Source: a virus. From it: DNA of 64,000 nucleotides. Below are positions 31,668 to 40,887 of the stretch, piece by piece (positions within the stretch are counted from its first letter, which is position 1; the number at the start of each line of letters is the position of its first letter). The position numbers and the translations under genes are program-made. The notes under the pieces are model-generated. The model saw only the letters and a program-made list of their open reading frames with translations. It ran no database searches and had not been told where the DNA came from. The stretch spans positions 1 through 64,000 of IMG/VR virus record IMGVR_UViG_3300031787_000064, one strand, 5' to 3'.

Positions 31668-31688
31668 AACTTTTATTTTTTTGTTTAG

Positions 31689-31760
31689 AAGTCAGAGCAG
31701 GATTCGAACCTACATCTCTCACCTACTATAGTGAGGCGTTACCATTTACGCTACCTGACT
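31689..31760 (-). ncRNA. tRNA-like RNA with non-canonical anticodon arm (isotype undetermined)
   Basis: Acceptor AGTCAGG/TCTGACT, D-arm GCGT-AAATGGTA-ACGC, T-arm GTAGG-TTCGAAT-CCTGC; anticodon loop is 8 nt (TATAGTAG) with no U33. Confidence 0.7.
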
Positions 31761-37522: not shown

Positions 37523-37813
37523 TTAGCTTAAAGAACTTAATACCACACCTTTGTAACCAAGGCTATTAGCCTTCTCGATACCAACGAACTCGCTAAAGTC
37601 TTCACCTGGTACCTCATACAAGTATACCTGGAAGTTCTCACAAAACTTCTTAATATGCTTGGACTGCTCGGCCCAATCCATATACATCGTATTGATGCCT
37701 AACGTATAGTCAAGCCAATCGTGAACATCACAAATATTCAATACAGGAAATTCGCTTTGTAGCTCAGCGATAACTCTGTTTCTACCTTCTAATACTAATT
37801 CATTCATATTCAT
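37523..37813 (-). CDS. hypothetical early protein
   Basis: First gene after promoter module 3. Confidence 0.65.
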   Translation of the reverse strand: MNMNELVLEGRNRVIAELQSEFPVLNICDVHDWLDYTLGINTMYMDWAEQSKHIKKFCENFQVYLYEVPGEDFSEFVGIEKANSLGYKGVVLSSLS

Positions 37814-37851: not shown

Positions 37852-37983
37852 GTAAATATACTACGAATTTTTGACACCAAAAAATTTTTAGTGAACTATT
37901 TTGAAAATTGTCGATTGATAATCAATTAGTTATGCAAGTGATTGGAAATCAATCAGTTACACACCTTGATAATCAATTAGTTA
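37852..37983 (-). promoter_or_regulatory. early promoter module 3 with tandem IHF-like sites
   Basis: GTAAATATAC...GTGAACTATTTTGAAAATT; 18-mers at 37915, 37942 and 37966, all matching WATCAANNNNTTR. Confidence 0.7.
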
Positions 37984-38015
37984 CGTATGTAGGAAAATTA
38001 ATATGTATAAGTGAC

Positions 38016-38603
38016 TCACTTCTTGTACCTGCACCTGTCAAAATGCCATTGTTTCATGGCGCTTCCTTTTCCTTTCTTTAAACAGTGCGGACACGTATAC
38101 ACGGGACGAATATCACCAGCATATTTAGGACATTTATCAAAATGATATTTTTTTGCATTATTAGATGCTGTTTTAATTCCACAATGAGGACATTCAATAT
38201 GGCTGTATACTTTTCCTATGCTAGCTTCTTTTATTTTATTTTTATGTTCTTCAGACTTAGGTTTTCTCATTCTCATTTTTGTTTCCTCAGTCTTAGGTTT
38301 TTTCATTCTACTCTTATGGTATTCTGATAAAGGCTTGCCTGTTTTAAATTCACTAATCTTTTTATTTATATGAGCTCTTTCTTCTGGTGTCATGTTTAAT
38401 CTTTGACTTATTAAGTGGGCTGCGCAATATTCACCTTTATCATAATGAATTTGATAATGCTCTTTTAATGGAAGTGCAATAAGATTAAATATATTATTGT
38501 TATTTCTATCACCATCAATGTGATGGATATCATAAGTCACTCCATTTTCATCAACTGGTATCGGTCCGTAATAATCAGACCATATTTTTCTATAATCAGC
38601 CAT
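38016..38603 (-). CDS. HNH homing-type endonuclease with NUMOD3 and CPHC zinc-ribbon repeats
   Basis: YDIHHIDGDRNNNNIFNLIAL...EHYQIH; KPKSEEHK repeats; CPHC...HFDKC twice; start reassigned to MADYRKIW at 38603. Confidence 0.85.
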   Translation of the reverse strand: MADYRKIWSDYYGPIPVDENGVTYDIHHIDGDRNNNNIFNLIALPLKEHYQIHYDKGEYCAAHLISQRLNMTPEERAHINKKISEFKTGKPLSEYHKSRMKKPKTEETKMRMRKPKSEEHKNKIKEASIGKVYSHIECPHCGIKTASNNAKKYHFDKCPKYAGDIRPVYTCPHCLKKGKGSAMKQWHFDRCRYKK

Positions 38604-38613
38604 AAAATAAAAA

Positions 38614-38712
38614 TGGACCCAGAGGAAGTAAAGGTCCCGGAATGACCGATACTCCATGAGTCCAATAAATTATTGTAGATAGTTGATTCCGGCAACTTTC
38701 TATCTATAATAA
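38614..38712 (-). ncRNA. structured 5' leader RNA: two hairpins with complementary loops (kissing-loop)
   Basis: Loop CCGGAAU (38686-38692) and loop AUUCCGG (38637-38643) are exact complements; each closes a multi-segment stem. Confidence 0.7.
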
Positions 38713-38717
38713 ATATC

Positions 38718-39467
38718 TTACTTTTTAAAATCTATAAATTCATTACCATCTTCTTGACTCAAATGATCTTCTTTAGACTTAAATAATACATCTCCAGATC
38801 CATCTAATCCGAGGTTTTTAAGATGTGTATAATAAAAATCATCGAGTTGGAATAACTCTTGTGCATCTTCTTTTATCTCTGGTGCATCTATAGGCATTGC
38901 TTCTAGACGTTGTAGCATTTTGTTTGAGAACGGATCTTCTATGAACAAGAAGTAACAATTGTAGCAAAGCCATCTTAGGTTCTCTATTCTCCAGTCACTA
39001 CGTTTACCGTTAACAAAGTTAAGTAGTAAAGGTGCTTTCATATCTGTCAATCTCTTCTCACTGAACTTACATGTTGCACATTGGTAACCTAGTCTACCAT
39101 CTTTCATTAGAAGTTCTTTCAACCTTATAATCTTCTTGGTATTGATAGGTTGATTCTCTACTAACATGTCGTCTAGATTCTTCTTCCACTGTCCACCTAC
39201 CCAGTTCTTAGGCATACCTTTGCCTGCTTGATTCTTGTGTAGTTCGAACAAGCTTTTGCCTGTAGCTTCGTCTATATGTTTCTTTGCATACTTCTTGTAT
39301 GTAACATCTGTAATGCCAAGCCATCTAGCAGCTTCTTTATTGCTTCTAGTATTAGCCATGGCTTCTCTAATTCTTTCTGGAGATAATTGCAGGCCTCGGT
39401 TCCACCAGGTTTCTGGTCTAACGCCTCTAGCCATATTTTCTTTCGTGAAGTTATATTGCTTGCTCAT
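38718..39467 (-). CDS. HTH plus degenerate HNH/zinc-finger protein
   Basis: SNKEAARWLGITDVTYKKYA HTH; CATC...PLLLNFVNGKRSDWRIENLRWLCYNC HNH scaffold lacking the catalytic His. Confidence 0.7.
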   Translation of the reverse strand: MSKQYNFTKENMARGVRPETWWNRGLQLSPERIREAMANTRSNKEAARWLGITDVTYKKYAKKHIDEATGKSLFELHKNQAGKGMPKNWVGGQWKKNLDDMLVENQPINTKKIIRLKELLMKDGRLGYQCATCKFSEKRLTDMKAPLLLNFVNGKRSDWRIENLRWLCYNCYFLFIEDPFSNKMLQRLEAMPIDAPEIKEDAQELFQLDDFYYTHLKNLGLDGSGDVLFKSKEDHLSQEDGNEFIDFKK

Positions 39468-40227: not shown

Positions 40228-40887
40228 TTACTTGAATCTAGGGTTATGCAGTCTCATAAACTCTGCATGCTCTGGTCTTTTCTTGCCATAGAATGGATGG
40301 TTTTCTCCTCTCATCTTTTCTTTAAAGCTTTCTGATTGTGTGTTTCTAACTCCTGTATATGTAGGACAGTTGTCGAAGTGCCATCTATGCATAACATTCT
40401 CATTTCCTTTTTTACCACAGTGAGGACACTCAGCATCTCTCTTCTTCTTTCCTTTCTGAGCTATGCTAAGTTTAAGTTTAGTTTCCTCTGACTTGACTTT
40501 CCCTAAACCAGATTTGTTACCTTTAGAAGTAATAGTCAGCTTTTGTCTATGCTCTAACGTCTTCTTTCTACCAAACCAAGGATGGGCTTCTTTACTTCCG
40601 AATCCACCATCTCCGATTTCCTCTTTCATGTTAGCCCAGTTATCTGACTTAACTACATTGAATAAGTTAGAATAATACAATCCTAACTCTTTTACTTCAT
40701 CTTCATTAATTGTTTCGTGAAGTATCCAAGTCTGTAAGTCTGAGTTCTTGAGGTTGTGCAAGTTAAGGTGTCTTTTCCATCTTAGCCCACTACCTTCATA
40801 CTTATAAGGATCTTGAACTGTCTTACCTAGATACAATAACCCTTTAGGACTCTGCTTAACGTATATGTAAGTCTTCTTATTCTCCAC
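40228..40887 (-). CDS. GIY-YIG homing endonuclease with NUMOD3 repeats
   Basis: YIYVKQSPKGLLYLGKT...YEGSG; KSEETKLKLS; CPHCGK...RWHFDNC; NHPFYGK. Confidence 0.85.
   Translation of the reverse strand: MENKKTYIYVKQSPKGLLYLGKTVQDPYKYEGSGLRWKRHLNLHNLKNSDLQTWILHETINEDEVKELGLYYSNLFNVVKSDNWANMKEEIGDGGFGSKEAHPWFGRKKTLEHRQKLTITSKGNKSGLGKVKSEETKLKLSIAQKGKKKRDAECPHCGKKGNENVMHRWHFDNCPTYTGVRNTQSESFKEKMRGENHPFYGKKRPEHAEFMRLHNPRFK

Follow-up and report, generated by a model that had tools for sequence, protein, structure and literature searches.

A two-hairpin leader RNA with covarying loops at the 5' edge of mobile homing-endonuclease cassettes in freshwater phages

The leader and its endonuclease gene

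The window, a stretch of 64,000 nucleotides from the viral record IMGVR_UViG_3300031787_000064, carries on its minus strand a short gene whose 195-residue product is assigned by Pfam to the HNH_3 homing endonucleases. HNH_3 is the sole domain of this protein, with no RuvC, and the NUMOD3 motif attributed to it in the preliminary description is not reported by Pfam. Read 5' to 3' from 38717 to 38601, the minus strand presents a promoter-like sequence, two hairpins and a U-rich tail that leads directly into the nuclease ATG. The features of the locus are as follows:

38718..39467, minus strand: upstream neighbour, a 249-aa protein annotated by PHROGs as an HNH endonuclease and conserved in related genomes
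37985..38717, minus strand: whole inserted cassette, comprising leader, endonuclease gene and ~30 nt more, with an approximate 3' boundary
38708..38716, minus strand: promoter-like motif ATATTTATT at the 5' edge of the cassette, overlapping the 5' arm of hairpin 1
38716-38709, minus strand: core motif ATATTTAT, by direct reading
38670..38712, minus strand: hairpin 1, with a 12-bp lower stem, a GAAA bulge (38700-38697) and an apical GUUG/CAAC stem
38686..38692, minus strand: loop 1, CCGGAAU, exact reverse complement of loop 2
38614..38664, minus strand: hairpin 2, in three tiers of 8, 6 and 4 bp
38637..38643, minus strand: loop 2, AUUCCGG, exact reverse complement of loop 1
38604..38613, minus strand: U-rich tail UUUUUAUUUU, 10 nt, between hairpin 2 and the AUG
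38603-38601, minus strand: nuclease ATG, directly 3' of the tail
38016..38603, minus strand: HNH_3 homing endonuclease gene, 195 aa plus stop (Pfam HNH_3 at 2.2e-9)

The two-hairpin layout had been put forward in the preliminary description, and direct reading of the strand finds it right to the base, including the exact complementarity of the two loops and the end of the structure 10 nt before the ATG. Hairpin 1 runs in the order UAGAUA, GAAA bulge, GUUG(CCGGAAU)CAAC, UAUCUA, and its lower stem extends into the promoter motif, where UUAUUAUAGAUA is paired with UAUCUACAAUAA. Hairpin 2 spans 51 nt with two internal loops, its tiers being UGGACUCA/UGGGUCCA, GGAGUA/UACUUC and GGUC(AUUCCGG)GACC; in the window copy the basal 8-bp stem consists of 5 G-C, 2 A-U and 1 G-U pairs. 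The hairpins are joined by a linker of 5-6 nt, and the loop sites lie 42 nt apart. The sequence CCGGAAT occurs three times in the 64-kb window, two of these occurrences being the loops themselves.

The 79.7-kb genome holds 24 occurrences of the core motif ATATTTAT, about 18 of which lie 4-35 nt 5' of an ORF start on the same strand. Endolysin and baseplate-module ORFs are preceded by it, two of the remaining occurrences head 100-nt endonuclease leaders, and four fit neither class. From these genome positions it is plausible that ATATTTAT is a promoter, although a putative one. The promoter-like motif is unchanged across all copies of the leader, and in every copy ATATTTATT overlaps the 5' arm of hairpin 1.

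Comparative evidence for the fold

Folded alone, the window copy reaches -32.3 kcal/mol (z = -2.5), with 3 of 200 shuffles equally good. Because this energy is only modestly better than that of the shuffles, the single sequence is undecisive. About 40 copies of the leader were gathered from freshwater phage contigs, and 35 of them make up the main alignment. Standard pairs occupy 94.8% of its pair cells, compared to 33-45% when the partners are slid, with double-sided changes at 25 of the 41 pairs. Pairing in the loop-loop helix reaches 99.6%, both partners having changed at 6 of its 7 pairs, and the sole mismatch proved on inspection by eye to be a misaligned row. The apical stem of hairpin 1 is 100% paired, all four pairs having changed on both sides, and appears as GUUG/CAAC, GUUA/UAAC, GCUA/UAGC, CUG/CAG, AUCUU/AAGAU or UCGA/UCGA. 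Its lower stem is paired at 95%; where this stem runs into the promoter, a U-A pair is replaced by A-U, a compensatory swap. The bulge varies among GAAA, GAGA, GGAA, GACA, GAUA and GAAU. In hairpin 2, both sides have changed at 13 of 18 pairs and predicted energies range across copies from -17 to -25 kcal/mol; nearly all of its sequence differs between loop types, internal loops included, while the architecture is retained.

The strand of the structure can also be read from the alignments. G-U pairs at columns 59/99 and 64/92 of alignment A2 are compatible only with the strand of the endonuclease gene, G-U wobbles in hairpin 1 (columns 11/46 and 16/41 of alignment A6) likewise fit one strand only, and covariance-model scores are 60-145 bits for the sense strand versus 18-33 bits for the antisense. 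Taken together, the comparative evidence for the predicted fold is strong and decisive, indicating that both hairpins and the 7-bp loop-loop pairing are kept by compensatory change. The earlier proposal of a structured RNA with loop-loop pairing, wobbling on the transcribed strand and with compensatory changes expected in the stems and loops of homologous leaders, is thereby borne out.

The one-strand wobbles bear as well on the idea that the element acts as DNA, the inverted repeat of hairpin 1 serving as an operator to which a repressor, or the nuclease itself in autorepression of the I-TevI type, would bind, or as a PeSL-type recombination module. In favour of this, sequence conservation in the stem of hairpin 1 goes well beyond structural need and the stem shares bases with the promoter motif; an operator mediates repression by I-TevI of its own late promoter (PMC2988022), and leaders have been swapped among ORFs and sites, as proposed for PeSLs (PMC4122927). 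However, the wobbles point to RNA pairing, and the promoter accounts for the conserved sequence of the 5' arm, just as the need to pair with this arm does for the 3' arm. An operator would also leave the covariation between loops 42 nt apart unexplained, and a common autorepressor is not expected of unrelated nuclease families. A DNA-level element appears very improbable.

The copies carry eight distinct loop pairs (loop 1/loop 2), every one an exact 7-nt reverse complement:

CCGGAAU/AUUCCGG (window copy)
CUACUAC/GUAGUAG
ACGGAAC/GUUCCGU
CUCUAAC/GUUAGAG
GGGCAAU/AUUGCCC
AUGCGAC/GUCGCAU
GCGGAAU/AUUCCGC
UUGCGAC/GUCGCAA

Pairing of 6-7 nt between hairpin loops is also seen in ColE1 RNA I/RNA II and in the L2-L3 contact of the lysine riboswitch, both of which use Watson-Crick loop pairing with specificity from the loop sequence. 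In ColE1 the pairing joins two antisense transcripts of one DNA segment and in riboswitches the loop contacts are located in the ligand-binding junction, whereas here two adjacent hairpins of one leader are involved and no ligand pocket is conserved. A riboswitch was rejected, as there is no conserved unpaired pocket and both the internal loops of hairpin 2 and the bulge of hairpin 1 vary.

Loops may differ at 3-4 of 7 positions while the remainder of hairpin 2 is 95-100% identical. In leaders L025 and L075, for instance, hairpin 2 is the same outside the loop and each loop differs at 3 of 7 positions, all compensated, a pattern that speaks for a requirement for loop pairing. Such changes, and the presence of eight loop pairs among otherwise very similar leaders, could alternatively mean that each loop is an address lending specificity to RNA-RNA contacts made in trans, producing dimers, cross-talk or incompatibility between cassettes. 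Indeed, loop types differ within the genome in all six contigs that hold two or three copies, and long hairpins on a short linker would dock more easily between molecules than within one. Yet the within-genome difference is no more than suggestive, at about p = 0.08 from type frequencies, among genomes that may be related; the L025/L075 pattern is also explained by a recombined top of hairpin 1 followed by adaptation of loop 2; and no trans target or effect is known. Trans contacts of this kind are decidedly unlikely, and it is quite unlikely that the loops would be private addresses under diversifying selection, by which cassettes avoid or compete with one another through trans pairing in the manner of an incompatibility code.

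Mobile cassettes and their carriers

Every complete copy is fused at its AUG to an HNH_3, HNH or GIY-YIG ORF, and in one copy a 9-codon remnant follows the leader. The same leader thus precedes HNH_3 proteins (the homologues at L014, L037, L117 and L109), classical HNH proteins and several GIY-YIG proteins, and among the copies loop type shows no association with protein family or insertion site. Judging from these sequences, the leader is exchanged among unrelated nuclease families and insertion sites. The loops were also considered as partners of sequences in the flanking phage genes or the nuclease ORF, and this was rejected because loop type is independent of both site and ORF. For the same reason, an autoregulatory site specific to this HNH protein, which had been entertained at the outset, is not borne out.

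The same distribution weighs against a guide or scaffold RNA associated with the nuclease, a reading that had been proposed by analogy with IscB and its omega/HEARO RNA and for which the sole argument is that a structured RNA and an HNH gene lie side by side. IscB comprises RuvC and HNH in ~400-500 aa, and the 195-aa protein here has HNH_3 only, RuvC being absent. The same RNA precedes GIY-YIG and other HNH proteins, and the only variable segments are the two loops, which are mutually paired. The Rfam search called for in the preliminary description matched no family, HEARO included: in Rfam 15 with E up to 10, the window element reached at best 17-19.5 bits (E 2-6) versus gathering scores of 45-90, and five other leader loci gave nothing at E up to 0.1. 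A guide RNA is scarcely credible.

A second copy of the leader, of the CUACUAC type, lies at 76.9-77.0 kb of this genome. Both sites have empty counterparts in related genomes, and in the empty sites of G001, G002 and G003 leader and nuclease are missing together. In these three relatives, TAACTAATTGATTATCAA-type repeats begin right after the stop codon of the 249-aa gene; in the window its TAA adjoins the cassette. The empty-site form is seen in contigs from two sequencing runs as well, which join 38025 to 38829/38831 and also hold the leader in another context. Because relatives lack the leader and the nuclease together, the leader is part of the mobile cassette, in agreement with the earlier suggestion that RNA and gene move as one unit. 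No conserved element was found 3' of the nuclease cassettes at the sites compared, and the leader, present only on the 5' side, shows where mobile endonuclease cassettes begin in metagenomic phage genomes.

PeSLs of T4-like phages (PMC2839356, PMC4122927) are likewise short cassettes of promoter and stem-loop that border variable genes, with apparent modular shuffling of adjacent sequence; here it is the neighbouring ORF that is exchanged. Unlike PeSLs, which are proposed as recombination points used by many kinds of ORF, this leader is specific to the 5' side of homing endonucleases, has two hairpins, and shows loop-loop covariation that indicates a function at the RNA level. Membership in the PeSL class, in which a conserved promoter and stem-loop flank swapped modules of hyperplastic regions on both sides, was rejected, since the 3' side of the nuclease ORFs has no flanking element.

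The fusions also settle the start codon. Unrelated ORFs are joined to the leader exactly at the downstream ATG, and an upstream ATG at 38657 was rejected as the start, being missing from most other loop types. Of the preliminary description, then, the covarying structured RNA, the mobile cassette and the start at 38603 stood, and the guide RNA and the HNH-specific autoregulation did not.

The carriers form a clade of freshwater myoviruses of ~160-180 kb, with Flavobacterium phage immuto as their closest relative in culture. Neither near nor distant nucleotide searches of the GenBank phage collection gave a homologue of the leader. A covariance-model search of immuto and Microcystis phage Mel-JY01 gave only weak matches (24 and 22 bits), rejected as the promoter motif with unrelated hairpins, and a pattern scan of genome-assembly contigs gave one chance match, in an Anabaena assembly, that the covariance model rejected. 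Ten DNA-pattern matches with only the first 24 nt in common were discarded (L011, L013, L020, L024, L027, L030, L033, L035, L041 and L042), some of them antisense coding sequence. No description of the leader was found in the literature searched, the comparison being with texts outside the supplement of a catalogue (PMC10690425) that lists more than ten thousand viral candidates for structured RNAs.

Start-codon context and a possible role in expression

In all copies a tail of 7-12 nt, at least ~80% U, abuts the AUG. The nuclease leaders have on average 1.7 A at positions -13 to -4, versus 5.4 for the other genes of the phage, whose leaders are A-rich and in which Shine-Dalgarno sequences show no enrichment (7% of starts versus 11% background). 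A Bacteroidota host is probable, judged from structural-protein identity (a baseplate protein 45% identical to its immuto counterpart) and codon-context statistics only. In Bacteroidetes, mRNA structure and upstream nucleotides are reported to tune initiation (PMC6847099).

The distance to the AUG is 10-11 nt from the end of hairpin 2 and 55-65 nt from the 3' arm of hairpin 1. Sequestering of a Shine-Dalgarno site or start codon is not seen here, as the tail and AUG are unpaired in the predicted fold and Shine-Dalgarno sites are not used. By nested-structure thermodynamics, positions -12 to -1 are equally accessible in long and short transcripts (0.46 versus 0.47 unpaired). This gives no support to a plain unmasking switch, and an effect of the leader would have to be exerted through the tertiary contact.

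A role for the leader in translational control is plausible, and on balance it seems probable that the folded leader acts in cis to lower, and possibly to time, expression of the nuclease. After hairpin 2 the start context is poor in A and rich in U, atypical for a phage with A-rich, Shine-Dalgarno-free leaders, and without Shine-Dalgarno sites mRNA structure would be the main tuner of initiation. Loop-loop pairing would link hairpins 1 and 2 into a stiffer fold beside the start codon, holding nuclease synthesis low and possibly limiting its timing. A consideration on the other side is that docking of such long hairpins on a 5-6-nt linker within one molecule would need bending at the bulge and internal loops, though this is plausible. 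Because the putative promoter itself forms the 5' arm, the full hairpin 1 would be present only on transcripts that read through from upstream, and those from its own promoter would carry a truncated, weaker hairpin 1. The logic would be that of T4 I-TevI, segB and mobE, but exerted at a distance through loop contact with no direct masking of a ribosome-binding site. It is likewise rather likely that the leader is one copy of a portable module, ~115 nt long and regulatory in cis, with which free-standing homing-endonuclease cassettes begin at their 5' end.

Partial termination at hairpin 2 and the U tract may add to this throttling. In its stronger form this becomes a separate explanation, a stand-alone small RNA of ~100 nt or an attenuator, in which hairpin 2 and the U tract terminate transcription and the nuclease is made by read-through. 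Promoter, two hairpins and 7-12 conserved U-rich bases are a classic layout for it, hairpin 2 is stable (-17 to -25 kcal/mol), and T4 mobE and segF have terminators at their 5' ends (PMC2988022). However, a simple terminator scan does not call hairpin 2, the real terminators just 5' of some copies are short GC-rich stems with T6 and do not resemble the three-tier, 51-nt hairpin 2, and no alternative antiterminator pairing is evident. The position of the AUG exactly at the end of the U tail, with unrelated ORFs fused there, suggests a translational constraint. In the 77-kb cassette, moreover, the nuclease gene ends within a downstream dCMP deaminase gene, for which no separate promoter motif was found; an efficient terminator would silence this deaminase gene. 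An attenuator or small RNA is unlikely, if worth keeping in mind.

A cis-acting throttle has clear relatives among T-even phages, in which RNA structure, embedded late promoters and terminators control homing-endonuclease genes (PMC2988022). The hairpins of I-TevI, I-TevII, I-TevIII, segB and Aeh1 mobE also lie directly 5' of a phage homing-endonuclease ORF and are presumed to limit or delay nuclease synthesis; a promoter in the 5' arm confines the full hairpin to read-through transcripts (PMC2988022), as the promoter-like motif in hairpin 1 may do here. Unlike them, the hairpin with the putative promoter described here contains neither a ribosome-binding site nor a start codon and involves no Shine-Dalgarno site; it is joined by a covarying 7-bp loop-loop contact to a second, start-proximal hairpin, and it belongs to a conserved, portable module common to HNH_3, HNH and GIY-YIG genes at many sites. 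In Aeromonas phage 25, the seg43(25) gene has a hairpin of great stability just 5' of its ribosome-binding site, which is not sequestered (PMC2988022). This hairpin too lies beside, not over, the initiation region of a free-standing endonuclease gene, but it is a single hairpin with no loop-loop partner and no conserved family described.

The leader represents one portable RNA module that at least three families of nuclease share across many sites of insertion, and its long-range loop-loop contact is kept intact in eight different sequence pairs. Hosts tolerate homing endonucleases, as selfish genes, only under tight limits on expression, and in T4 this expression is limited by gene-specific hairpins. 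If the proposed mechanism holds, the leader would be a new class of cis-regulatory RNA and a natural case of translation control by tertiary RNA structure in a Shine-Dalgarno-free phage, and its loops would offer a ready set of orthogonal pairs for studies of expression tuning by kissing contacts.

The leader of the window's HNH_3 gene

The leader (38717-38604) lies between a 249-aa gene (38718-39467) and an HNH_3 gene (38603-38016), and every coordinate in the preliminary description, a minus-strand reading, proved right.

Elements of the window leader in 5' to 3' order, by direct reading
38720-38718, minus strand: stop codon (TAA) of the 249-aa gene
Directly after this stop, minus strand: promoter-like segment, G-ATATTTATT
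After G-ATATTTATT, minus strand: hairpin 1, UAGAUA-GAAA-GUUG[CCGGAAU]CAAC-UAUCUA
Between hairpins 1 and 2, minus strand: linker, 5 nt
After the linker, minus strand: hairpin 2, UGGACUCA/UGGGUCCA, GGAGUA/UACUUC, GGUC[AUUCCGG]GACC
Between hairpin 2 and the ATG at 38603, minus strand: tail, UUUUUAUUUU

Hairpin 1 is present as first drawn, but its lower stem had been made too short, as pairing of UUAUUAUAGAUA with UAUCUACAAUAA extends it into the promoter-like motif. The ORF starting at 38603 encodes an HNH_3 endonuclease (Pfam, 2.2e-9), and the choice of this ATG holds up: most other leader types lack the ATG further upstream, at 38657, so hairpin 2 is non-coding. Taken alone, the window leader folds only moderately better than shuffled sequences (z = -2.5) and matched no Rfam family. 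Nor was any Rfam family found for the leader at large, or any description of it in the papers searched, which did not extend to one big catalogue of viral RNA candidates. Antisense to hairpin 1, on the plus strand at 38683-38710, is a near-consensus sigma-70-type promoter (TTGATT-16 nt-TATAAT, 10/12) directed into the 249-aa gene; it perhaps arises only as a side effect of the AT-rich palindrome.

Loop pairs, covariation and strand

The whole genome record, G000 (IMG/VR, 79.7 kb, estimated completeness 47%), carries a second leader copy outside the window, at 76,893-77,008. It precedes another HNH gene, an insertion that separates the dUTPase gene from the dCMP deaminase gene. The hairpin 1 stem of this copy is identical to that of the window copy, and its loops are CUACUAC and GUAGUAG. 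About 40 copies were collected through four pattern scans of viral contigs, one of metagenome contigs, two covariance models and model searches of whole contigs. Eight loop pairs occur among them, and in each copy both loops are exact 7-nt reverse complements. By themselves the loop duplexes come to -6.9 to -9.5 kcal/mol and contain 3-4 G-C pairs each; the genome's G+C content is 35%.

Loop pairs among the collected copies (hairpin 1/hairpin 2)
CCGGAAU/AUUCCGG
CUACUAC/GUAGUAG
ACGGAAC/GUUCCGU
CUCUAAC/GUUAGAG
GGGCAAU/AUUGCCC
AUGCGAC/GUCGCAU
GCGGAAU/AUUCCGC
UUGCGAC/GUCGCAA

In the nine copies that align without a model, standard pairs fill 99.2% of pair cells and nine pairs have changed on both sides. 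The model alignment of 35 copies has 94.8% of its cells paired, versus 33-45% after shifting the 3' partners by 1-3 columns, and both-side changes in 25 of 41 pairs; none of 500 shuffles attained the observed pairing and covariation values. Because the loop-loop helix was left out of the model, it tests the fold independently: 99.6% of its cells pair, six of its seven pairs have changed on both sides, and the sole miss, inspected by eye, is a misaligned row. The two hairpins and loop-loop pairing first proposed from the window are thus borne out by compensatory changes in stems and loops across the 35 copies.

The G-U wobbles, said to work on the transcribed strand, are indeed compatible only with the nuclease-gene strand, and covariance-model scores are 60-145 bits in sense versus 18-33 bits in antisense. 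Both observations argue that the leader is an RNA structure in the nuclease-gene sense or, less likely, a single-stranded DNA structure of that strand. A DNA operator or PeSL-like recombination module does not explain the G-U pairs, nor why two loops 42 nt apart should covary. Two observations, neither conclusive, suggest a rival reading in which the loops are "addresses" acting in trans. The loops vary while the rest of hairpin 2 is identical (between contigs L025 and L075 the stems have 0 changes and each loop 3/7), and all six multi-copy contigs carry differing loop types (about p = 0.08).

Nucleases served and mobility of the cassette

In all complete copies bar one, a homing-endonuclease ORF begins exactly at the leader's AUG, be it HNH_3, classical HNH with NUMOD modules or one of several GIY-YIG types. 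The remaining case, an ACGGAAC-type copy (contigs L008/L010; 6264-6290 in L008), has only a 9-codon remnant of an HNH-type ORF, MNYQLVYDN*, so the leader can outlive its nuclease gene. Among the collected copies no link emerged between loop type and protein family or insertion site. Three different nuclease families occupy one insertion site; one GIY-YIG family has CCGGAAU or CUACUAC leaders; and contig L117, at the same site as the window copy, pairs a GGGCAAU-type leader with a homologous HNH_3 gene. The protein architecture, together with the variety of nuclease families that share the leader, rules out an IscB-like guide RNA, one form of the nuclease-associated ncRNA once suggested.

Both G000 cassettes are absent from three related contigs (G001, G002 and G003), with flanks of 72-79% nucleotide identity. 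At the empty site of G002 a single base separates the dUTPase stop from the dCMP deaminase start (TAATATG); between the matching flanks in G000 lie 674 nt of leader and HNH gene. At the window's site, operator-like repeats directly follow the 249-aa gene's stop in all three contigs. In the window the same repeats come ~30 nt after the HNH_3 stop, which gives a cassette of ~730 nt between the 249-aa gene's stop and the repeats. Contigs from two sequencing runs have 38025 joined to 38829/38831. The first base of the cassette is the base after the upstream gene's stop, and the promoter-like motif leads. Judged from these comparisons, the leader is part of a mobile nuclease cassette, much as envisaged for the RNA and HNH gene, which are both missing at the related contigs' sites.

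Several neighbouring features were recorded. The second cassette's HNH gene starts ATGAATAAAT (G000 76,893-76,905; ~1432-1444 in L002) and the dCMP deaminase gene at the G002 empty site (127,300-127,309) starts ATGAATAAAC; this could represent insertion-junction microhomology or a coincidence. The window's repeats (37914-37983, minus), just downstream of the HNH cassette, consist of an 18-19-nt motif, (G/A)TAACTAATTGATTATCAA, in three copies spaced ~25 nt apart, one of them a variant, GTAACTGATTGATTTCCAA. In G001, G002 and G003 the motif recurs several times directly after the 249-aa gene; the array resembles a set of operators or promoters serving the gene that follows (37523-37813). A GIY-YIG/NUMOD3 homing endonuclease gene at 40228-40887 (minus) has no kissing-loop leader and begins at a GTG that overlaps the upstream gene's end. 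It is an insertion relative to the three contigs (733 nt here, 87 nt there), and its product and the HNH_3 protein have in common a C-terminal zinc-ribbon motif, ECPHCG...WHFDNC. At 31688-31760 (minus) ARAGORN calls a tRNA-like gene whose anticodon, given as two bases (ag), is undetermined; the normal tRNA cluster (Leu, Gln, Glu, Pro) is found at 62.5-63.8 kb.

The promoter-like motif and nuclease synthesis

The 8-mer ATATTTAT occurs 24 times in G000, about the base-composition expectation. Some 18 of these sites lie 4-35 nt upstream of a same-strand ORF start, two more head 100-nt endonuclease leaders and four fit neither class; the genes behind them include endolysin and baseplate-module ORFs, and the 8-mer is plausibly a phage promoter. 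It stands just 4-6 nt from some G000 start codons; if it acts as a -10-like element, the transcripts there would have very short leaders or none. At G000 65,196-65,276 (minus) another promoter motif precedes a canonical GC-rich terminator hairpin with T7 and, 24 nt later, a gene, so promoter-terminator-gene layouts are not unique to nuclease cassettes.

In the leader, the motif makes up the 5' arm of the hairpin 1 lower stem. Where it reads ATATTTATAATG, this stem carries a compensatory U-A to A-U change, which argues that full hairpin 1 is selected in promoter-containing RNA, that is, in read-through transcripts. RNA begun at the motif would retain only ~9 bp of hairpin 1 (predicted -5.8 versus -8 to -14 kcal/mol).

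Among cultured phages, Flavobacterium phage immuto comes closest (45% identity in the baseplate protein). Upstream of G000 genes there is no enrichment of Shine-Dalgarno-like words (7% versus 11% background), and positions -13 to -4 are A-rich (mean 5.4 A/10), with an A peak of 61-64% at -13 to -11. Both features fit Bacteroidetes, in which mRNA structure and the nucleotides upstream tune initiation (PMC6847099). In the nuclease leaders, positions -13 to -4 contain just 1.7 A. Across copies hairpin 2 (-17 to -25 kcal/mol) always ends 7-12 nt before the AUG, and the intervening tail is U-rich in all cases. This layout would suit an attenuator, or a stand-alone small RNA, whose end lies at hairpin 2 and the U tract; that reading is weakened by a negative terminator scan, by a hairpin shape unlike the real terminators just upstream of some copies, by the placing of the AUG exactly at the tail's end and by the dCMP deaminase gene downstream in the 77-kb cassette, which would depend on read-through.

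A covarying, conserved two-hairpin fold with a loop-loop helix abuts the start codon in mobile nuclease cassettes. The closest known systems are the T-even homing-endonuclease leader hairpins, which differ in their defining feature, a ribosome-binding site sequestered by a promoter-bearing hairpin; neither loop involves a ribosome-binding site in this leader subfamily. A stable hairpin at -11, an atypically poor initiation context and a host reliant on unstructured A-rich leaders suggest that the fold would hold nuclease synthesis low, and the loop contact would stiffen it. Nested thermodynamics, in which tertiary contact is outside the model, predict start-site accessibility to be alike for long and short RNAs, so any switch between the two must act through tertiary contact. 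Since hairpin 1 would be complete on read-through transcripts only, the effect may be stronger there than on own-promoter transcripts, following the same logic as the I-TevI, segB and Aeh1 mobE leaders (PMC2988022).
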